From positions 1 to 37,224 of the forward strand of contig JAHLWH010000268.1 in NCBI GenBank assembly GCA_019058015.1: 37,224 bases of DNA, given 5' to 3'. Position numbers and translations under genes: made by a program. Below are positions 8,068-19,264 of the stretch, in pieces (the stretch's first letter is position 1; each line of letters begins with the position of its first letter). The notes below the pieces were generated by a model. The model had not been told where the DNA came from. It did no database searches and saw only the letters and a list, made by a program, of their open reading frames with translations. The stretch comes from Promethearchaeota archaeon (lineage in GTDB: Archaea; Asgardarchaeota; Lokiarchaeia; Sigyniarchaeales; SOKP01).

Positions 8068-10103
8068 ATGAATCTAAAATTAAATAGTTTCCAGAAAAAG
8101 GCAGGAATATTCTATACTCCAGAGTACATTACTGAATTCATGGTAAAAAACGCAATTTTTGAATATATATTAACATTCTTTGAAAAAAGATATCAGACTA
8201 TTGATGAATTAATTTTATCAGACAATCTGGATGACTTAAAAAAATTAAACAACATTATTATACATTTGAAAATCTTAGACCCAGCATGTGGAGCTGGCAT
8301 ATTTTTATTAAAATCAGGACAAATCTTATTGGAATTAACAAGTAAAATTGCAAAAAGATTAAATCTTAGACAAATGATCTTCAAAAAACGAGTTGATATA
8401 ATAGAAAAAAATCTTTACGGTGTTGATATATTTGAAGAAACTATTCAAGAATGCAAATCGCAATTGAAAAAATGGTTGATTTCAAATGATCAACTTAATT
8501 TTAATAATTATGGAAATAAAGATATAAATTTTAATCTAAAGGTTGAAATAGTTTAATTGGCAACTTAAATGAAGAAATAAATGAGGGAGATGTATTCAGT
8601 AATAATTTTTCAATAGAATGGAAGTCATTCCATTGGAATAAAGAATTTCCTGAAGTAATTAAGAGCGGAGGATTTGATATCATTTTGGAAAATCCGCCCT
8701 ATATTTTTACCCGTGGAGGAAATTTTTCTCCTTTACAGAAAATCTACTTTAAAAATTTCATTTCTAAATTAGGATTAATTCAATCAAAAAAAGGAAAGCA
8801 AATTCAATCAAATAAATTAAATACATATTCTCTATTTATCCTGAGGTCTTTAGAATTATTAAAAAAAGGAGAAAAATTAGCGGTATTAGTTCCAAATAAT
8901 TTTCTGCGCAACACAAATCTCGATATTTATAGAGATTACATACTTAGTAATTATTCCATCAATCGAATTGTTGATTTATCTAATGGTGTTTTTCGAAATG
9001 TAGTTGCATCTATTATCTGCTTATTTATTGATAAAAAAAAGCCAGATGAGGAATTTAAGACGCAAATTATATCAAATATTGAAGATCTTAATGAAAACAT
9101 TTATAAAGAAAATAAAAGAGCACAATCCAGCTTTCTCAAAAATAAGAGCTATGTAATTAATATATATCTTGATGAAACAGCTCGTAAAATTTGTAAAGAA
9201 ATTGTAAAAAATTCAACAAATTTAGGAGAAATCACTGAATATATTATTGAAGGAATTATTCGCTCAAAGAAGAGAGATGTCTATGAAACTCGACTGAAGT
9301 CTATAGATATGCCCTTTATAGAAGGAAAGAACATTGATAGGTATATTACTAAATGGTCTGGTAAATTTATTAGATATGATAGAGAAAATTTACATAGGGC
9401 AAGGTCTAATGAAGTATTTACCAGTAATAAATTAATAGGACAAAGGATAAGTGGAGGAGCTAAACCATTAAAAGCAAATTATGACTCCGGGATCTTTTAT
9501 ACATTTTCTTCAATAAACAATATAATCATAAAAGAAAATTTTCGAAAGAAATTCCCCTTAAAGCTTATTTTATTAATTTTAAACTCTAATTTAATGAACT
9601 GGTATTATTCAATAAATTTCACAAATAAATCGAAACTTACAGTAAATATTTCAAAAAATTTTTTGGAAGAAATCCCCATTGTTGAACCTAAAGACAAATC
9701 TCTTTTTGAAATAATGGCAGAGTATTTGATATTTTTATTTCACTATTATAATATTGAAAATGAAAAGTTAATTTTCAACAATGAAATGATCCAATTCTTT
9801 TACGTATTAAGCAATGGAATAATCTATGAATTATATCTAAAAGAAAAAATTAAATCAAATTTAATAAACAATTTAGAAAACAAATTAACACCAATCAAAT
9901 TTGAATATTGGATTAATGGAAAATTTAGAAAGCTTATTTTTAAGGAAGATATATTTCATTTTGAAATAATTGAAAAGGAAAATCTTGAAAAAATAAAAAG
10001 GATTTATAATAAATTGGTTAAAGATAACACAATTCAGACTAATTTTAATGACGTCTATAAAAACAAATTGATAAAATTTATAGAGAAAGATGTTAAAAAG
10101 TGA
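8068..10103 (+). CDS. N6-adenine DNA methyltransferase (Eco57I/TaqI-like with C-terminal target recognition domain), split by a 1-nt frameshift near 8545
   Basis: GIFYTP and ILDPACGAGIFL in ORF1, NPPY in ORF2. Adding one G gives NLKVGNSLIG...FHWNKEFPEV..GGFDIILENPPY with no stop (678 aa). Confidence 0.88.
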
Positions 10104-10332: not shown

Positions 10333-11649
10333 TTGTGGGGAAATATCATAAAAAATTCAAATATAAATCTAAATAATCAACTGAAATATTTAATAATAAG
10401 AAACCCATTAGACTTGCAAATAGAAAGAAAAGATATATTTTATCGCGAATCTTATTCCGAAATTATTGATTATATAAAATTTTTATTGAGTTCTGAGGCT
10501 GTATCATCAGAAACTAAAATAAAGAAGATCAAAGGTTCAATTTTAATTGATGCTCCTTATGGCTCTGATATATTAGGGTATATTAAATTGATTGCAAAGA
10601 CATTCACCTTAAAATTTGTAAAGTTAAATTTTCCCGAGATTAGAAAATCTCCTAATGATTTTATATTAAATTTTCCAAATATCTTTGATAATTTGGCTAA
10701 AATTTATGGAGGAGCTAAAAAAGTAGAGCAAGAAGTTAAAGAAAAAGATAAAACTATAGAAAGAGCTTTAAAATTTATATTTGTTGCTGAAAATCAACAA
10801 GAATTATTTCAGAGAACTCAGAAAGATATTCATTTTGATCTATTCGAACACTTATATTATGAGTTAAAAAATAAGATGGAAAATATTAATTTTATCGAGA
10901 ATGGGATTATTTTTATAGGAATAAATCATCAAGAGAATACTTTATGCCAAGCAAGTTTTAAATTATTTGATTTTTATTTAAAAATTCCAACGATCACTGA
11001 AAATGAAAGAATAATTATTTTAGAAAAAATTAGTGAAGAGATATCTGCAAATCAGACTTTTAATGTGGATAAAATTGCTTCCTTAACTGAAGGGTGGGAA
11101 GTAAATGATATAAGGGAATTGATTAAAATCGCATACTTACGGAATGTGGCTAAATTAGATGATTGTGTCAACGATATTACAGAATTAACAGAAAAAATAA
11201 TTGACAGGGGGGAATTTATTCCTTCATATTTGATTTCACTAAATTTTATTCAAAATAAATTAGGGACATTTCAAACTTCTTTAAATTCTTCAATACATCA
11301 ATCGATAAATCAAAATAGAAAGTTTAATATAGAACTTTCAAAAGAAGAATATAGTAAAATTCCAGAACTTGAATCTCAATTAAGAGCTGAAATAGAGAAG
11401 ATTAGATCACAAAGAATATCAAATTTTATGGTACAACAATTATATGAAGATGCAGCGTCAGAAAATTATACAGAGCTCTTAGTTATATTAGATAAGATGA
11501 AAAAGAAAGAACCCCTTGAAGACTACGATCGAAAATTATTAGCTGAATATTCTTTTATTTTGAATGACCCTCCAAATATCGCCTTAATACTGTTAGAAAA
11601 GGCAAAAAAACGAATTGATAATATTAAAAAAGCATTTGGGAAGGAATAG
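10333..11649 (+). CDS. Degenerate (pseudo-ATPase) classic-clade AAA+ protein with a helical C-terminal domain
   Basis: GSILIDAPYGSD (Walker A position, no GKT), FIFVAEN (Walker B position), IIFIGINH, LFDFYLKIPTITENERIIILE and lid IASLTEGWEVNDIRELIKIA, following the Cdc48/PAN/Vps4 layout. Confidence 0.7.
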   Translation: MWGNIIKNSNINLNNQLKYLIIRNPLDLQIERKDIFYRESYSEIIDYIKFLLSSEAVSSETKIKKIKGSILIDAPYGSDILGYIKLIAKTFTLKFVKLNFPEIRKSPNDFILNFPNIFDNLAKIYGGAKKVEQEVKEKDKTIERALKFIFVAENQQELFQRTQKDIHFDLFEHLYYELKNKMENINFIENGIIFIGINHQENTLCQASFKLFDFYLKIPTITENERIIILEKISEEISANQTFNVDKIASLTEGWEVNDIRELIKIAYLRNVAKLDDCVNDITELTEKIIDRGEFIPSYLISLNFIQNKLGTFQTSLNSSIHQSINQNRKFNIELSKEEYSKIPELESQLRAEIEKIRSQRISNFMVQQLYEDAASENYTELLVILDKMKKKEPLEDYDRKLLAEYSFILNDPPNIALILLEKAKKRIDNIKKAFGKE

Positions 11650-11652
11650 AAA

Positions 11653-14600
11653 ATTTCGACAAAAACAATTAAGTCTAGATCATCATCGGACAAATTAAAC
11701 CAAGAGGTTTACATTAAAGAGATTATATTAGAAAATTTTTTAGCTTTTTCTAGAGATAAAGCCGAATTTTCTAAAGGATTTACAATTGTAGTTGGTCCTA
11801 ATTGGTCTGGTAAATCCACAATTTACCAAGGGATAAAGTTTGCTTTAGGTAGCAATGAAAGGGACGAAAGATATACAAAATGGTCCGATTTTATAAGAAC
11901 CGGACAAAACCATGCTCTAATCGAACTTTATATTCAGACACCTGAGAATTTGATTGGAATACGAAGGACTGTACTTAGAGGAAAAGCTCCTTTTTTTGAA
12001 ATTAAGCAAAATAATGAGAAAGAATTCAAAAAAATTAATTCCCTTGAAATAAGAAAGCTTGTAAAATCATTAAATTATAATCCAGATAATCAATTTTCTT
12101 TTGTCAGTCAAGGCAAAATTGATGCGCTTAAAGATATGAAACCTGAAGAATTATGCATTTTCTTAGAGGAAGGAGTGGGCTTAAAAGGATTAAGATATGA
12201 AATTTTAGAGCAAAAAACTCAAGTATTCAATTTACAAGAAAAATTAAAAGCATTAAAAACAGAGCTAAATAGTTGGAATTTTGAATTAAAATTATTGGAC
12301 CCTAAGTTAAAAAGATTAGAAGATAAGCGAATTTTGCTTAAAGACAAAAAAAGCCTAACAGATGAGTTATTATGGGCAAATCGAGAAAAACTAGAAAAAG
12401 AGATTTATATTCTTGAAGAAAATATTAAGAAAATTGCTATTATAATTAATGATTTACAAAAGCAATTAGAAGATTTTACAACGCAAATAAATGAAATTAC
12501 TGAAAAAATTGGAACAATTGAAAAAAATTCAGAAATACTTTATGAGAATATAGGAAAAATAAGGGGTAGAATTTCAGAATTAGAGAAGATTATTCAACAG
12601 TGGAAGATGGAACAACAAAGGATAAAGGTACGCTTAGAGGAATTAGAACAAAATAAAAACAAACTAAAAGGTAAATTAGACAACAATAAGGCTAAAGGAA
12701 ATAAGATCTCAGAAGAATTAAAACTCTCACGCAAGAATATTAAAATACTAGATTCTGCAATCTCTAATATTTTAAAAGAACAAAATGAATTATTGGAAAA
12801 GGTTTCTATTCACAAAGATTTTCTTGAGAGATTTAAGAAGACAAAAGCAGAATTAAGTAAAAAACAAGATGAGCTTATTCAGAATACCCAAAAAATAACA
12901 GAAATTAATGATGAAATTGATATAATTTTCGCTGAATTAAGAGATGTAAAGCATCAATTTGAGCAAAATAAATGGTTTCTTAAAAATAAGGATGAGAATT
13001 TACAAGAAAAGTTAATTAATCAGCGTAATAATTTAGATAATGAAATTCATGATTTAAAGGAACAACTAAGAGAAATAAGAAAGGATTATGATAAAAGAGT
13101 TAATGCTTATAAAAGATTAAATTATTCCATTAGAGAAAAAAGAGTATTCTTACCTCAAAATGTCATAACTTTAAAAGAAGAGATTTACAATAGAAATCTA
13201 AATGCAAAAGGTCCAATAATTGAATTATTACAATATGATGATAAATTGGGGTTTGCAATTGAATCAGTTTTAGGAAAAAAAGTGTTATTTAGTTTTATTG
13301 CAGGCGATTGGAATACGTTTATTCTACTAAAAAAATTGAAAGATAGTTATAATGTTTATTGTAATATATATATACCAAAGGAAGAAAATATTCGTCAATT
13401 TTCAAAATATGAGAAAATTGATGGAGTATTAGGCTATCTCGCAGAATTAATTAAAATTAAGGGCAATGATGAAGATGTAAGGAAATTAATTTATTCTAAA
13501 GTGAAAAATTGTCTTGTAGTAGAAGATTTTACTACAGGAACACTTATGCATAAAAATTACAAATTTAGAGGTAAATGTGTAACATTAAAAGGCGAGCAAA
13601 TCATATCCTATGATTATGTTGTTGAAACACCATACTTAAAGAAATTAGAAGGATTATTAAGTCCTACTAAACAAATGGATCAATTATATCTGTTAGAAAT
13701 GGAAATAAGTAAATTGAATGATGAAAGAAAGAATTTAGAATCTCTAAAAACTAAAATAGATCAAAAATATCGAGAAATTTCCAAGAAAATTAATGCTTTA
13801 CCTACTCTTGAATTATTATTCCGGCAAGAACAAAAACTTTTAAGCAAAAAAGATAATCTCTTTGAAACAAGAAAAAATAAGAACGAATTGAATGATAATA
13901 TTGAAATGCAAATCGATGATTTGGTAAAAAAAGTGGAAACTTTAAAAAAAGAACAAAAACCAGAATTTTTTGAATGGCAGAAGCGTTTAGAAAAGATTCC
14001 AGACGAATTTGATTTAAAAAACAATGAAAAGAAACATTGGTCAAAAATTAATGATGAAAAACAGAAATCATTATCTGAAATTCAAGAAATTATAAATGAA
14101 GAAACCGCTGAATTTACAAAAATAAACATTAGTCATAAAACAACCAAAAAAGAGTTTCAAAGTAGAGATCAAAAGGCATTTGAAGTATTTCAAGAACTAA
14201 CTGGACTTGAAAATCAAATTAAGGATTTAAAAATTCAGAAAGAAAAGTATGAGTTAGATAAAAAGGCTCTAAAGGAAGAAGAAAATAAAATTAAACAAGA
14301 AAATCTTGAGTTTAATTTAAATTATGAAAGAAAACAAGACCAATTGAGTTCGCAACAAAATGATCTCCAATCCAAAATTTTAGATCTAGAAAAAGTAAAT
14401 AAAGAGATTGGTCCAAAAATATTAAGTGAAGAAATAAAAATACGTCCAATTGAAGAAATTGAAAAAAGTCTTCTCGAACTGAATAAAGAATTAATGAAAT
14501 ACGCAGATATTGATGATACTTTAGAAGTAGAAAAAGAGAGAATTATTAAAACACTTAAAAAAATTGCTAAAAATCAAGCGCAAATTCAGAGAGACCTTAT

Positions 14601-15108
14601 TGAAGCAGAAGAAACCGAAAAGAATTTAGAAAATACATATTACAAAAAGTTCAATAAAATTATCAAAAAACTAGAAGATTTAATTAATAAAAAATTTGAA
14701 ATCTCTGAAATTAAAGCTCAGTGTTCAATTGATTTATCGGGTAAATTTGAAAATTTAGGCATAAAAATTAAAGCATCTTTATTAAAAGAACAACTACGAG
14801 AAATAACCGCATTAAGTGGGGGACAACGTTCTATCATTGCAATCTGTTTAATACTTTCTTTACAAGAGTTTAAATCAAGTAGGATAATTGTATTAGATGA
14901 GGCTGAATTATATTTAGATGAAAATAACGCCGAAATCGCCTATAAATTAATAAAGGGCGCAATCCAGATGAATAAAACACAAATAATAATATTTGTGCCA
15001 AAAGCATCTAAATATATTTATTCAATGGCAGATAAACTCATTGGAGTTGCAAGAAATGGAGCAATAGGGCCATCTACGATACTCCAACCTAAGATAATAA
15101 AGACTTAA
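11653..15108 (+). CDS. smc: SMC ATPase, Smc5/6-like (about 1151 aa; inferred non-canonical ATT start)
   Basis: The frame upstream of 11950 encodes VYIKEIILENFLAF...FTIVVGPNWSGKST...WSDFIRTG. Also Q-loop NPDNQFSFVSQGKI, coiled coils, hinge GPIIELL...AIESVLG, LSGGQRS, IVLDEAELYLDENN and QIIIFVPK. Confidence 0.9.
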   Translation: MSTKTIKSRSSSDKLNQEVYIKEIILENFLAFSRDKAEFSKGFTIVVGPNWSGKSTIYQGIKFALGSNERDERYTKWSDFIRTGQNHALIELYIQTPENLIGIRRTVLRGKAPFFEIKQNNEKEFKKINSLEIRKLVKSLNYNPDNQFSFVSQGKIDALKDMKPEELCIFLEEGVGLKGLRYEILEQKTQVFNLQEKLKALKTELNSWNFELKLLDPKLKRLEDKRILLKDKKSLTDELLWANREKLEKEIYILEENIKKIAIIINDLQKQLEDFTTQINEITEKIGTIEKNSEILYENIGKIRGRISELEKIIQQWKMEQQRIKVRLEELEQNKNKLKGKLDNNKAKGNKISEELKLSRKNIKILDSAISNILKEQNELLEKVSIHKDFLERFKKTKAELSKKQDELIQNTQKITEINDEIDIIFAELRDVKHQFEQNKWFLKNKDENLQEKLINQRNNLDNEIHDLKEQLREIRKDYDKRVNAYKRLNYSIREKRVFLPQNVITLKEEIYNRNLNAKGPIIELLQYDDKLGFAIESVLGKKVLFSFIAGDWNTFILLKKLKDSYNVYCNIYIPKEENIRQFSKYEKIDGVLGYLAELIKIKGNDEDVRKLIYSKVKNCLVVEDFTTGTLMHKNYKFRGKCVTLKGEQIISYDYVVETPYLKKLEGLLSPTKQMDQLYLLEMEISKLNDERKNLESLKTKIDQKYREISKKINALPTLELLFRQEQKLLSKKDNLFETRKNKNELNDNIEMQIDDLVKKVETLKKEQKPEFFEWQKRLEKIPDEFDLKNNEKKHWSKINDEKQKSLSEIQEIINEETAEFTKINISHKTTKKEFQSRDQKAFEVFQELTGLENQIKDLKIQKEKYELDKKALKEEENKIKQENLEFNLNYERKQDQLSSQQNDLQSKILDLEKVNKEIGPKILSEEIKIRPIEEIEKSLLELNKELMKYADIDDTLEVEKERIIKTLKKIAKNQAQIQRDLIEAEETEKNLENTYYKKFNKIIKKLEDLINKKFEISEIKAQCSIDLSGKFENLGIKIKASLLKEQLREITALSGGQRSIIAICLILSLQEFKSSRIIVLDEAELYLDENNAEIAYKLIKGAIQMNKTQIIIFVPKASKYIYSMADKLIGVARNGAIGPSTILQPKIIKT

Positions 15109-15125
15109 AAGAAATTTGAATCATT

Positions 15126-15797
15126 ATGGAAAAAAATAACTCCTCTATCCCGTCTATTATTGAAGAAATTCAAGAAATTTTTGATATAATTCATAGAGGG
15201 TCCAAACATGCTCTAAGTGTAGATTTAAACCCCATTTTTCAAAAATTTAAGCGATCCATAACTACACAAAATCTGAACGAGTCTTCCTCTGCATTTAGTA
15301 AGTTATGTAATATTATTGAAACAAAATTTAACGAATTACAGATGTATTTAGCCCTATTTGGTCAAGAAAAGAAATTCCTGACATTTTTAGAATCAAATCC
15401 TTCTGATATTGAAATATTCAATCTATTTAAAGGATGTTGGTATAAACCCTTTAATTTAAATGCATTATCTCTTGATTTTTTAGAGGAATCTAAAGATTCA
15501 CTGGAAAACAGAATAAGAGAAGGTTATATAATCGAAAATCTTGAAATCCCACAAAAAGATGAAAATTTTTTATTAGAAATGCCTTCAAGTTCATTTCAAG
15601 AAATAATTGAAAACTATTTTAATAAAATATCTGAAAAATTACCATGTAATATGGAAGATCTCTTCGAAGATATCGAGAATCAGGAAGAAATATTTGAAAA
15701 ATTTATTATGATTTTACATTTACTTCAAAATGGAAAAATAATGTATCAAAAACAGACAAATTTTATTTATATACCAGAAGGTGGAAAAGATGAATGA
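15126..15797 (+). CDS. Kleisin (ScpA/Nse4-like) subunit
   Basis: N-terminal ALSVDLNPIFQKF...NLNESSSAFSKLCNIIETK and C-terminal winged helix FIMILHLLQNGKIMYQKQTNFIYI resemble ScpA; begins 17 nt after the smc stop. Confidence 0.72.
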   Translation: MEKNNSSIPSIIEEIQEIFDIIHRGSKHALSVDLNPIFQKFKRSITTQNLNESSSAFSKLCNIIETKFNELQMYLALFGQEKKFLTFLESNPSDIEIFNLFKGCWYKPFNLNALSLDFLEESKDSLENRIREGYIIENLEIPQKDENFLLEMPSSSFQEIIENYFNKISEKLPCNMEDLFEDIENQEEIFEKFIMILHLLQNGKIMYQKQTNFIYIPEGGKDE

Positions 15798-16305
15798 AAT
15801 ATCCTTATTGATGTATTTATTGAGTAAAAAAGACCAATTGGATGAGATGGGTTCAACCAAAGAAGAGATATTAGAGAAATTGCAAATTTCTGGGCGAGAG
15901 AAAGGATTTATATTTAAGAAACTATTAATTGAACTTTCTAGATATATATCTCCCTTAGGACTCGAAATCCAATATAATCCGTTAAATACCCATTGGTTCT
16001 TAACCTTTAAATCAGGTATGAGCGATCTGATTTTAGCAAACCCATTTCAAGATAAACCACGATTGGCTGCAACTTTATTTTGTGCAATAATTTTATGCTT
16101 AAAAAGTAATGGTATTGCAAAAATAGAAGAATTAAAGCGATTAAGAAATAAAAAAGATATCCGGGAAGACTTAAAAGATTTAGAAAAGCTAGGTTTTATA
16201 AAAATTTTAAAAAATCATAATGAAATTAATTTAACCCCACTTATTGGGTATTTATTGAACATATCTAAATTATTTATGAAATTATCATTAAAATTAAATG
16301 TTTGA
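15790..16305 (+). CDS. KITE (ScpB/Nse1/Nse3-like) tandem winged-helix subunit
   Basis: About 171 aa; ELSRYISPLGLEIQYNPLNTHWFL and LAATLFCAII...EELKRLR...DLKDLEKLGFI fit WH-A/WH-B; ATG at 15790 follows GGTGG and overlaps the kleisin stop. Confidence 0.68.
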   Translation: MNEISLLMYLLSKKDQLDEMGSTKEEILEKLQISGREKGFIFKKLLIELSRYISPLGLEIQYNPLNTHWFLTFKSGMSDLILANPFQDKPRLAATLFCAIILCLKSNGIAKIEELKRLRNKKDIREDLKDLEKLGFIKILKNHNEINLTPLIGYLLNISKLFMKLSLKLNV

Positions 16306-16406: not shown

Positions 16407-17837
16407 ATGTCTTCCTCAACAACTCAAAAAGAAAGTGAATCAACAAAATATACCGCTCTATTTAAGAAGTTGTGGCCAAATTTCGTCGTGTATAATTTTT
16501 GGGCACTAACTATTTCTTCCTTGTATATAAATACAACAATCGTCTCAAATATAATTTGGACTGGAGAAGAGATTCATGTTGGAGAACTAGGAATTTTATT
16601 TGGATCTGGAACATGGATGATGGGAATTTCAGGTTTGTTTTTTGGTTATTTAGCAGATAGGTTTAATCGCATAAAACTTATGACATTATCTATGATAATG
16701 TTTGGAGTTGGTATGATAATAAATGGATTTAGTCCAGAAGGGCAAGAATCCTTAACTTTTAACTTCTTTTTAGGATGTATTTTATTCAGAAATTTTTTTT
16801 GTGGTGGGTTTTGGCCTATAATTCTCTCATATACAAACGATACTGTAGAAGAATTTGAACGTTCTCGGTTTTTTGGTGCGATAAATGCCACTTTTCAAGT
16901 TTTTCAGATAAGTGGGATGTTAATTTCCACCTTGTTATTTCAAAATCAATTTTGGCGTGAATTTATGTGGGGTATGGGATTGTTATATTTAATTGGAGGT
17001 GTTATGATCTCTCTAAAAGGTATTGAACCTAAGAGAGGGGGTACCAAAAATCAATTAAAAGCAGTTTTATTCGAATCAGGGATCAAATATCAGTATAAAT
17101 TAACAAAAAAAACATTTAGAACTACTATTTTAAAGCCTACTATTTGCATTTTATTTGTTGAGGGTATTTTTATTTCAATGTGTTTCTCATTGGTTGACTT
17201 TCTATTTATAACCTATTTACAATCACCACCTCATAACATTTCTCCCTTTATAACTACTGTATATTTGACTATATTTGGAATTTCTGGTGGCATTTTAGGA
17301 TCTATCGGTTTTTCAAAGCTTTCTGATAGATTGGCAAATAAAAACTTCAAAAATCGCATTTACTTAATTGTTTTTTCAATAGTAATAGTATTTTCAACAT
17401 ATATTTTTTTATTTTTTATTCCAATACAGAGTATGACTCCCGTTCAAGGAAATGATTTAGTGTTTATTATAACTACTCCCGCATTTTGGTTACTTGGCAT
17501 TGGCGCATTTATTTTTCGTTCCATTATAAGTATATATAGTATTAATCAGCCACCACTTATACAAAAAATTAATTTACCTGAAAGTCAAGGAATAATCAGT
17601 TCTTCCAGTCAATTTTTAGATTTTATAGGACTCGGAACAGGACCAATGATAGCTGGTTTAATTTTAGAGTTATATAACCAAAATTATCAAATTACAGTGC
17701 TAATTTCAATGATTATTGGAATTATAGGTGTATTCTTTTGGTTAATAGCAATAAAATGGATTAATAAAGATATTGAAACAATTTCCTCAATACTCAATCA
17801 ACGAGCTGAAGAGATGGCTAGAATTAATGGGAAGTGA
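16407..17837 (+). CDS. Major facilitator superfamily transporter
   Basis: About 12 TM; motif A GYLADRFNR and repeat KLSDRL; ERSRFFG. Confidence 0.9.
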   Translation: MSSSTTQKESESTKYTALFKKLWPNFVVYNFWALTISSLYINTTIVSNIIWTGEEIHVGELGILFGSGTWMMGISGLFFGYLADRFNRIKLMTLSMIMFGVGMIINGFSPEGQESLTFNFFLGCILFRNFFCGGFWPIILSYTNDTVEEFERSRFFGAINATFQVFQISGMLISTLLFQNQFWREFMWGMGLLYLIGGVMISLKGIEPKRGGTKNQLKAVLFESGIKYQYKLTKKTFRTTILKPTICILFVEGIFISMCFSLVDFLFITYLQSPPHNISPFITTVYLTIFGISGGILGSIGFSKLSDRLANKNFKNRIYLIVFSIVIVFSTYIFLFFIPIQSMTPVQGNDLVFIITTPAFWLLGIGAFIFRSIISIYSINQPPLIQKINLPESQGIISSSSQFLDFIGLGTGPMIAGLILELYNQNYQITVLISMIIGIIGVFFWLIAIKWINKDIETISSILNQRAEEMARINGK

Positions 17838-18447
17838 TAATTTTTAATATCATGGCTGCCAAGTTGTCATTATAATCTTCCATACCTTCTAAATGTTCTC
17901 CTACAGTGTTGAAGAAATCCACAATTTCTATTTTTCTTTTTTCAAAGAAAGACTGGATTTTTTCTCTTGCTTCTTTAAGTTTTTTATCTTTTTGAGGTTT
18001 ATTTCCTTTTATTAGGTCACATTTATTAAGACACACATAGATATGTTTAGGAAAGAAACGGACATCATTGAAAAAATCAAATTGCTCATCAATAGAGCGA
18101 TCTAAAGCAAATACAACGATAATTTGTGAAGCGATCCGGCTAATTGTAATAATTCCCATACGAACTACAGCTCTCGCTTTATCACCTCCTGGGGCAAAAA
18201 TCGTATGTGCTTTTTTTGAAGTTTCATCTCTAAAAATAACGCGATTGGGATGTATTGTTTTAGTTTCCTTTTTTTCTGTAGCTTCTCGAGGTAAAGTTGC
18301 CTCACCAGAAAAGTCAGTCTTTACAATTACACATTTTCTTCCACCTTCCAGTGTCTCGAGTTTTTGTTTATTAATATAACTTACAAATAATCTTAAGAGT
18401 GTTGTTTTTCCTACAGAAATATCACCTAATAACCCTAGATTCACCAT
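17824..18447 (-). CDS. Divergent small GTPase (Ras superfamily, MglA-like G3)
   Basis: G1 GDISVGKTT, G2 TKTIHP, G3 region FAPGG (no DxxG Asp), G4 NKCD. Confidence 0.8.
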   Translation of the reverse strand: MVNLGLLGDISVGKTTLLRLFVSYINKQKLETLEGGRKCVIVKTDFSGEATLPREATEKKETKTIHPNRVIFRDETSKKAHTIFAPGGDKARAVVRMGIITISRIASQIIVVFALDRSIDEQFDFFNDVRFFPKHIYVCLNKCDLIKGNKPQKDKKLKEAREKIQSFFEKRKIEIVDFFNTVGEHLEGMEDYNDNLAAMILKIITSH

Positions 18448-18448
18448 C

Positions 18449-19264
18449 TTAATCTTCTTCCTCCTTTAATAATTTATTTAATAGAGTCTCATAATCAGGT
18501 ATTAGATATTGTTCGAGTAGTGCACTATTATGGGCATTAATTAATCCTACAAAAACTTCCTTTAAATTCTTTGAATTTTTAATATATTTTATTATCGTTT
18601 CAGATTCTACTCCAGCTCTTAGTGGTTTTGGTTCAGTATCAAATCCAAAATTTTCACTCGGAGGCAAGGAGTCGAAAAACCCAAATGCAGTGTAGCCTTC
18701 ATAAGCATAATAGCAAAAGAATCGAGATTTAATTGACTGAATAATCCTCGTCATATACACACTTGGATATAACTCTCCAAGGGTCATAGTTCCATCAAAA
18801 GTTATGAGATAATAGGGGCTTATAGGAGATTTTCTTAAGCCAAACATTTCTTGAGGAGGTAAACAAACAAAAGGAATTTTTTCTTCGATAATGGCCCATA
18901 AATCCCATCGTTCAGCATCATTTAAAATTTGTTTAACTTCATCGAAAGCATAGTAAAAATCTTGTTGAAAACTAAGTAGAGAACTTAGATAGACAGATAA
19001 AGAGGCAAAAGTTGCTTCTAATACGGGCTGCTTTTTACTATCTTCGCTAGGTTTTATTGTACCACGCCAGCTTCTTACTGCTGAATATGCAAATCCTTGA
19101 ACATCAAAAAAATTCCCGGAAAGTATTATGAATTGCGGAATTTCTCCTTCCTCATCCTTGAGTAATTCTCTAGTTTTATCTAATAAAGCTATTTCAAGAT
19201 TTATCTCTTTATAGCCAGAATGTAGTTGTGGCATTATCAGCCATTTATATTTCTTTTTTACCAT
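18449..19264 (-). CDS. Hypothetical soluble protein coupled to the GTPase gene
   Basis: 271-aa ORF whose stop lies 1 nt before the GTPase ATG; no confidently recognised family. Confidence 0.75.
   Translation of the reverse strand: MVKKKYKWLIMPQLHSGYKEINLEIALLDKTRELLKDEEGEIPQFIILSGNFFDVQGFAYSAVRSWRGTIKPSEDSKKQPVLEATFASLSVYLSSLLSFQQDFYYAFDEVKQILNDAERWDLWAIIEEKIPFVCLPPQEMFGLRKSPISPYYLITFDGTMTLGELYPSVYMTRIIQSIKSRFFCYYAYEGYTAFGFFDSLPPSENFGFDTEPKPLRAGVESETIIKYIKNSKNLKEVFVGLINAHNSALLEQYLIPDYETLLNKLLKEEED

Follow-up and report, generated by a model that had tools for sequence, protein, structure and literature searches.

Introduction

SMC types differ in how their ATPase is loaded and regulated. Among known organisms, Asgard archaea are the closest relatives of eukaryotes. 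Archaeal SMC proteins are divided into canonical and SMC5/6-related ones in PMC8665677. Two types of SMC-kleisin-kite operon are described for TACK and Asgard archaea, and three for some Asgard archaea, in the main text of 10.1101/2024.01.07.573240, where one kite clade is exclusive to Asgard archaea and adjoins Nse3. According to published work, Asgard archaea hold the ancestors of both condensin/cohesin and Smc5/6. Here we describe a cluster of four genes, named g1, SMC, g3 and g4, on contig JAHLWH010000268.1 of a Promethearchaeota archaeon (assembly GCA_019058015.1; Lokiarchaeia). The whole 37,224 nucleotides analysed are called the window. The cluster has the same order of SMC, small kleisin and tandem winged-helix kite as the published Asgard operons, for which a homodimeric SMC was inferred. 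In the accessible account of those operons three subunits are named, whereas here a fourth gene with an AAA+ fold always comes first in the cluster. On balance, we favour the reading that the cluster is an operon on the chromosome of a Lokiarchaeia-like Asgard archaeon and encodes a non-canonical SMC ring, in which g1 would be a non-enzymatic accessory subunit that loads or regulates SMC.

Gene order and conservation of the cluster

The gene calls for the window place g1, SMC, g3 and g4 as four co-oriented open reading frames (ORFs) on the + strand at 10333-16305 (Table 1). The window is AT-rich (GC 22-39% per kb), and its annotation shows ordinary metabolic genes around the cluster. If SMC is taken to begin at ATT 11653 and g4 at ATG 15790, the genes are separated by 3 nt and 17 nt and share an 8-nt overlap. 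Given that SMC start, the co-oriented arrangement and the spacings of the original prediction are reproduced exactly. The g4 start is backed by the family alignment, in which 'MNEIS' is the common N-terminus.

Table 1. Coordinates of the cluster, its first junction and the conserved downstream gene pair in the window.
Feature	Position	Strand	Description
g1	10333..11649	+	438 aa; TTG start immediately after a stop; stop TAG 11647-11649
SMC	11653..15108	+	1151 aa counted from ATT 11653
g3	15126..15797	+	223 aa; probable kleisin
g4	15790..16305	+	171 aa; KITE; ATG 15790 start
g1-SMC junction	11647..11715	+	TAG 11647-11649; candidate start ATT 11653; alternative ATT 11713
Small GTPase	17824-18447	-	207 aa; GTP_EFTU-type match; convergent; conserved in 58 loci
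271-aa protein	18449-19264	-	No family match; paired with the GTPase; conserved in 52 loci

A scan of one genome per species identified 115 genomes that encode a g1 relative, from which the 80 best loci were retained. Their record titles name Asgard archaea in 70 cases, 'uncultured archaeon' in nine and a Nanopelagicaceae bacterium in one. Adjacency counts cover only loci with a long enough contig. SMC was found directly after g1 in 80 of 80 loci, g3 directly after SMC in 64 of 64, and g4 directly after g3 in 61 of 63. The AAA-like gene, which had been proposed as a dedicated component, is thus kept immediately upstream of SMC in other genomes. Among the loci with a canonical SMC start, SMC begins 17-24 nt past the g1 stop in 45 of 67; the corresponding gap in the window is 3 nt. 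In 67 of 69 loci the SMC-g3 spacing is between -4 and 17 nt, and that between g3 and g4 is mostly -8 to 21 nt. Values of dN/dS against loci L001 and L002 were 0.21 and 0.25 for g1 and 0.20 and 0.17 for SMC; against L001 they were 0.32 for g3 and 0.20 for g4. The g1 values are close to those of SMC, and purifying selection acts on all four, which are real genes. The same gene order in 80 related loci, together with dN/dS of 0.17-0.32, indicates that the cluster is not a chance arrangement.

The two loci that depart from the complete order, L027 (about 8377-8918) and L063 (about 13382-13797), hold g1, SMC and g3 without g4. Their downstream synteny is also gone, and they could represent either KITE loss or rearrangement. 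Fusions of g3 and g4 in L019 and L037 are apparent only, as stop codons separate the genes. The record titled Candidatus Nanopelagicaceae bacterium (L075, DATKTW010000069.1) holds the full Asgard cluster with its flanking synteny and is probably a mis-binned contig.

The g1 protein

Searches with g1 returned 111 homologues at E <= 5.7e-36. Most are 406-429 aa long and share 33-40% identity with the g1 of the window, and none is named for a function. All 21 organism-named homologues are Asgard (Promethearchaeota, Loki-, Thor-, Hod- or Hermodarchaeota), and two more come from a marine sediment metagenome. No Pfam match was found for g1, and among 26 family members the Pfam AAA family was matched by one (E 0.098), with no consistent family emerging. 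Sequence and profile searches of PDB with g1 gave nothing meaningful. In NCBIfam only the CdvC lid was matched (E 1.4e-5, residues 204-275), with the PAN lid matched weakly.

An AlphaFold2 (AF2) model built from 26 sequences, of moderate confidence (pLDDT 65.4, pTM 0.60), places an AAA+ core and lid at about residues 20-295, a low-confidence or disordered linker at 301-362 and a C-terminal helical domain at 364-434. A Foldseek comparison of this model with PDB gave at least 500 matches at E <= 0.001 (E from 1.7e-6, TMt up to 0.58). The top folds were p97/VCP (D2), PAN (3h4m, TMt 0.54) and an Acidianus Vps4 homologue (4lcb, TMt 0.58), and further matches included Rix7, FtsH, Msp1, Rpt subunits and the Ycf2-FtsHi motor (8xku).

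The canonical AAA+ motif positions were placed on the strand-loop-helix pattern of the model, not by structure-based alignment, a point that counts against the assignments that follow. After the strand at 71-73, the P-loop sequence is APYGSD (NPGTD in the family consensus), and the Walker A lysine position holds an invariant D79. After the strand at 148-153, the Walker B site reads N/D-Q, and its glutamate position is occupied by Q155, conserved in at least 90% of sequences. Sensor-1 N198 is retained. Conservation is highest in the C-terminal domain, which carries FMxxQLYE and LEKAKK. Together, the modelled fold and these motifs support the view that g1 is a catalytically inactive member of the classical AAA+ clade, predicted to be unable to hydrolyse ATP.

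The SMC protein and its start codon

The SMC protein carries Walker A (GPNWSGK, 48-54), the Q-loop (Q153), LSGGQ (1054-1058) and Walker B (D1082-E1083), all invariant in 29 sequences. Pfam SMC_N was matched with 47.6 bits (cut-off 40). The SMC_hinge match at about 519-629 reached 20.7 bits, under its cut-off of 22.5, and most listed orthologues carry a precomputed PF06470 match. TIGR02169 aligned end to end, with SMC residues 20-1135 on model positions 1-1153. Scores were nevertheless below cut-off on both canonical models, at 184.7 bits for TIGR02169 (cut-off 729.4) and 170.5 for TIGR02168 (cut-off 567.35). Two other family members gave 179.8/202.4 (L032) and 193.3/193.4 (L012) on the same two models, and the canonical Smc of the haloarchaeon Natronorubrum, used as control, scored 1335.6/666.4. 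Since its motifs are invariant and its scores fall far below those of the canonical model, we predict that this protein is an active but non-canonical SMC.

The open frame of SMC extends from 11650 to 15108, and at the window junction there is no in-frame ATG, GTG or TTG between the g1 TAG and the Walker A motif. The first such codon, TTG 11950, lies downstream of Walker A (GPNWSGKST), and the SMC start must therefore be non-canonical. Mechanical ORF calling started SMC at this TTG, giving 1052 aa and no Walker A motif. The public protein records of SMC and its closest relatives (P0114-P0116) are the same 1052-aa form from the internal TTG; public gene models thus lose the Walker A motif because the gene has no canonical start codon.

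Comparison among loci places candidate starts upstream of Walker A. Besides ATT 11653, an alternative ATT at 11713 sits 4 nt after AGAGGT. An ATT or ATA followed by S-T-K is common to the clade of the window (ATT in the window, L001 and L002; ATA in L003), and this codon falls in an aligned column that holds ATG, TTG or GTG in 44 loci and ACG, followed by GCT, in 14. In 14 of 81 sequences (the 80 loci and the window), the stretch from the upstream stop to the LENF motif contains no ATG, GTG or TTG. An in-frame TGA directly precedes several of the ACG codons and is part of a GGTGA Shine-Dalgarno-like motif 6-8 nt upstream, and one clade reads ATC-ATC-GCT at the SMC start. These junctions suggest non-AUG initiation (ACG, AUC, AUU) in these archaea. 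A literature search on ACG starts in archaea found nothing relevant.

The shared frame of g1 and SMC in the window also raised a fusion through TAG read-through as a candidate. It was rejected: only 30 of 81 loci are in frame, about the one third expected by chance, and in other loci in-frame stops lie between g1 and SMC.

The g4 and g3 proteins

The AF2 model of g4 (pLDDT 83.6, pTM 0.74) consists of two winged helix-turn-helix units. Nine of its ten best Foldseek matches in PDB were ScpB chains (3w6j_C: E 2.3e-4, TM 0.58/0.60). The second-ranked match, 1t6s, was deposited as a conserved hypothetical protein, which we take to be ScpB. After ScpB came Nse1-Nse3 (7dg2, TM 0.42), MukE, JetB and MAGE. 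By sequence, ScpB models were matched by none of 25 g4 family members (Pfam, E <= 5) nor by the g4 of the window (NCBIfam, E <= 1). Pfam gave no consistent family among the 25 members, only weak winged-helix matches, and sequence and profile searches of PDB gave nothing meaningful. A language-model neighbour of g4, taken as a lead only, was MAGE (0.82). On the strength of the model, g4 is a tandem winged-helix KITE.

The position of g3 between SMC and the KITE gene (64 of 64 loci, counted on the SMC side) is that of a kleisin, and its size is also compatible with one. At the C-terminus, residues 159-214 match ScpA models of NCBIfam in the C-terminal winged-helix region (E 0.0073). At the N-terminus, hhalign paired residues 13-71 with the helical domain that begins two proteins annotated as ScpA (P 0.0037). 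Language-model Atlas neighbours, again leads only, were kleisins in all four named sets (Nse4_C 0.90, ScpA 0.84, ScpA/Rad21 0.82 and Nse4_C 0.82). Several results weaken the call. Pfam gave no match for the g3 of the window. The hhalign match has a probability of only 9%, ScpA models are matched by only two of 50 g3 family members, and the Pfam ScpA/Nse4_C kleisin families are found in none of 25 members and none of 49 wider relatives. For PF02616 in particular, none of the 25 members matched at E <= 5, while two canonical ScpA proteins used as positive control scored 49-54 bits. PDB searches by sequence and profile with g3 and its wider family gave nothing meaningful. Weighing both sides, we consider it very probable that g3 is a kleisin, although this is the weakest of the four calls.

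A g3 profile run against 1.84 billion representatives gave 99 matches, all unlabelled. A further family search gave 14, and the three with names are Promethearchaeota or Lokiarchaeota. The g3 family therefore looks restricted to Asgard archaea.

The original prediction had named the four products an inactive Cdc48/PAN/Vps4-like AAA+ protein, an SMC, a kleisin and a KITE. Three of these identities hold: the first through the Foldseek matches of the AF2 model and the missing Walker A lysine and Walker B glutamate, the second, as a full-length SMC, through intact ATPase motifs and the end-to-end TIGR02169 alignment, and the last through two winged-helix units in a confident AF2 model with ScpB chains as top matches. 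The kleisin is upheld in part, with weak ScpA matches at both termini and gene position in its favour and the absence of Pfam kleisin families from 25 members against it.

One further locus retrieved in this work lies on plasmid pMETHO01 of M. hollandica (L082, 5854-10145), where a gene annotated ScpA is followed by three hypotheticals and a 582-aa 'AAA family ATPase'. It may be another kleisin-containing system.

Type of SMC complex

We lean towards a complex that is SMC5/6-related or the Asgard sister of SMC5/6. A divergent condensin type is less probable though still a serious contender, and any other type is improbable. What points to the non-canonical side is that all three proteins of the complex miss canonical models and have only Asgard relatives, whereas the resemblance of the kite fold to ScpB and the matches to ScpA point to the canonical one.

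The strongest rival holds that the complex is the fast-evolving Smc-ScpAB (condensin/cohesin-related) of this lineage and not Smc5/6-related. It draws on the g4 model, for which nine of the ten top folds are ScpB at TM 0.58-0.60 against 0.42 for Nse1/Nse3, and on the g3 sequence matches, which are to ScpA only. The SMC protein provides two further points for it, in that the TIGR02169 alignment spans its full length and that prokaryotic Smc heads rank first when the single sequence is searched against PDB (63 bits, with Smc3 at 53 and Smc6 at 31; the matches are Smc, Smc1-6 and Rad50 heads). Profile-level comparison does not follow this ranking. The SMC family profile gave 86.9 bits for Smc4, 78.2 for Smc2, 77.9 for Smc6, 72.3 for Smc5 and 72.1 for Bacillus subtilis Smc, so that Smc6 and Smc5 are on a par with Smc2 and the bacterial protein and no clear affinity is seen. 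Further evidence against a canonical complex comes from the distance of all subunits to the curated models. Three SMC family members score 180-193 bits against a cut-off of 729 and against 1336 for a canonical archaeal Smc. None of 25 g3 members matched PF02616 and none of 25 g4 members matched ScpB at E <= 5, with canonical ScpA controls at 49-54 bits. The Atlas leads (Nse4_C 0.90 for g3, MAGE 0.82 for g4) also fall on the Smc5/6 side. We consider this rival appreciably less probable than an SMC5/6-related complex or its Asgard sister. The label 'Smc5/6-type' given in the original prediction is nevertheless not established: canonical models are missed, but ScpB is the closest fold to the KITE, and Smc4, Smc2, Smc6, Smc5 and bacterial Smc receive similar scores from the SMC profile.

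With respect to novelty, an AAA+ partner of an SMC-kleisin-kite complex was not found in the literature as far as it was accessible, nor in the main text of 10.1101/2024.01.07.573240, whose supplements may bear on it. The earlier statement that no described SMC system has such a partner agrees with this outcome. The cluster had also been proposed as an undescribed system, and this holds for one part of it: Asgard SMC-kleisin-kite operons are already published (10.1101/2024.01.07.573240, main text), so that the SMC-kleisin-KITE operon is known and the AAA+ partner, which we did not find in the accessible print record, is the new part.

The proposed link between g1 and SMC

The genes that flank the cluster are themselves conserved. 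Upstream, an ArsR-like regulator occurs in 63 loci and an ACR3-like transporter in 57; downstream, a convergent small GTPase occurs in 58 and a 270-aa protein in 52. Three points weigh against g1 being a subunit of the SMC complex. First, synteny in this lineage extends to the entire neighbourhood, the unrelated ArsR/ACR3 genes and the GTPase pair included, so the adjacency of g1 and SMC carries less weight than its count of 80 of 80 would imply. Second, the 80 loci are non-independent lineages, and the g1 family was met only in Asgard records. Third, the evidence that links g1 to SMC is entirely genomic.

These points feed a second rival, in which g1 is a mere conserved neighbour, for example a pseudo-enzyme partner of Cdc48, PAN or Vps4, and SMC-kleisin-KITE is the functional unit. 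Synteny that reaches past the cluster on both sides (63 and 57 loci upstream, 58 and 52 downstream) shows that adjacency is also kept between plainly unrelated genes in this lineage, and only three subunits appear in the published description of Asgard SMC operons as given in the main text of 10.1101/2024.01.07.573240. The spacing of the genes speaks for the opposite conclusion. The flanking genes lie 180-6100 nt from the cluster or are convergent, and there is no break between g1, SMC and g3. Their association is also looser: 10 of 56 loci have no ArsR-like gene in the 3 kb upstream (it is present in 46), and 7 of 55 have no GTPase in the 1.5 kb downstream (present in 48). By contrast, g1 is never apart from SMC (80 of 80) and ends 3-24 nt ahead of it in most loci, and the Shine-Dalgarno-like GGTGA of SMC directly follows the g1 stop. 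We regard a purely positional association as rather unlikely and retain the accessory-subunit reading.

The fold of g1 allows a third rival, in which it would act, as an inactive subunit or an adaptor, to bring an active AAA+ unfoldase of the Cdc48, PAN or Vps4 type to the SMC complex, so that the complex is unloaded or turned over, and would not regulate the SMC ATPase itself. The fold belongs to the classical unfoldase clade, with the sensor-1 asparagine and the lid kept, and inactive paralogues that share rings with active ones are among the fold matches (the Ycf2-FtsHi motor, 8xku). Such recruitment goes beyond what the fold says, however, and no active AAA+ gene is present in the conserved neighbourhood; we hold this to be improbable.

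An SMC-based system against plasmids or phages (Wadjet- or Lamassu-like) tied to the upstream methyltransferase is very improbable and was rejected along with a defence-island origin, given that the split N6-adenine DNA methyltransferase directly upstream (8068-10103) and weak PADLOC matches of SMC (mad3 67.6 bits, LmuB 41, JetC 27) are set against higher SMC scores on chromosomal SMC models (185 bits), no PADLOC match of g1, g3 or g4 at E <= 1, one conserved chromosomal position in 80 species-level genomes among ordinary metabolic neighbours, a methyltransferase limited to the clade of the window (L001-L003), and the absence of a nuclease gene.

Neighbouring genes in the clade of the window

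In the clade formed by the window and L001-L003, the upstream genes are replaced by a methyltransferase, and the four genes of the cluster are still contiguous. This N6-adenine DNA methyltransferase is spread over two ORFs with 128 nt between them (8068-8556 and 8685-10103), an N-terminal MTase domain of the MmeI/N6_Mtase type and an Eco57I/TaqI_C part. It was seen only in this clade, and no restriction partner was seen with it. The gene may be broken or naturally two-part. On the other side of the cluster, an MFS transporter gene (16407-17837) stands between g4 and the GTPase gene. As it is confined to the window and L001, it is a recent insertion into otherwise conserved synteny.

Discussion

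In the accessory-subunit reading, the four products would work as follows. SMC would dimerise at its hinge, g3 would bridge the heads, and a g4 dimer would sit on g3. Presumably made from the same transcript and encoded just ahead of SMC, g1 would probably be translated in step with it and join the complex as a non-catalytic subunit that modulates SMC loading or the ATPase cycle. Its AAA+ shell would serve as a scaffold and its conserved C-terminal helical domain as a docking surface, a role comparable to that of Nse5/6 on Smc5/6 in function, not in ancestry. SMC is presumably a homodimer, as had been proposed. We likewise infer that the complex is complete, that g3 closes the ring, and that g1 joins the complex in this role.

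A bolder form of this proposal can be formulated. Here g1 would represent a new class of SMC accessory protein: an AAA+ shell unable to hydrolyse nucleotide and an obligate fourth subunit of an Asgard-specific SMC-kleisin-KITE complex that docks through its C-terminal domain, gates DNA loading or head engagement, and has its dose coupled to that of SMC through weak non-AUG starts (AUU, AUC, ACG). We offer this extension tentatively and consider it distinctly less likely than the general accessory-subunit reading.

Should the proposal be true, a dead AAA+ protein hard-wired to an SMC complex would be a class of regulator unseen in bacterial or eukaryotic SMC systems. If in addition the complex is the Asgard sister of Smc5/6, the cluster would offer a view of pre-eukaryotic SMC regulation, one that precedes regulators of the Nse5/6 type. 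For the SMC gene itself, the analysis corrects public gene models by restoring the missing Walker A motif and points to non-AUG initiation in these archaea.

Among known systems, Smc-ScpAB consists of the same SMC, kleisin and KITE parts, and it is the closest in the fold of g4 (ScpB) and in the weakly ScpA-like termini of g3. It differs in that SMC, g3 and g4 miss the curated models that canonical members pass, and we know of no AAA+ partner in Smc-ScpAB. Eukaryotic Smc5/6 (Nse4 kleisin, Nse1/Nse3 KITEs and Nse5/6) is likewise a KITE-bearing complex and has an extra non-enzymatic regulator, as proposed here for g1. To our knowledge Nse5/6 does not have the AAA+ fold that g1 has. The cluster further differs from Smc5/6 in having one SMC gene and one KITE gene instead of pairs and in having no Nse2, and its SMC profile scores give no clear affinity to Smc5/6. 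In archaeal rad50-mre11-herA-nurA operons, an SMC-like ABC ATPase is also encoded with a protein of a ring-ATPase fold; HerA is an active FtsK/HerA-type ATPase, and Rad50 has a zinc hook in place of a hinge and is not known to have a kleisin or KITE. Finally, with classical AAA+ proteins (Cdc48/p97, PAN/Rpt, Vps4/CdvC and FtsH) and their inactive paralogues g1 shares the core and lid and the sensor-1 asparagine, and it is set apart from them by the loss of the Walker A lysine and Walker B glutamate, by an extra C-terminal helical domain and by its fixed position in an SMC operon.

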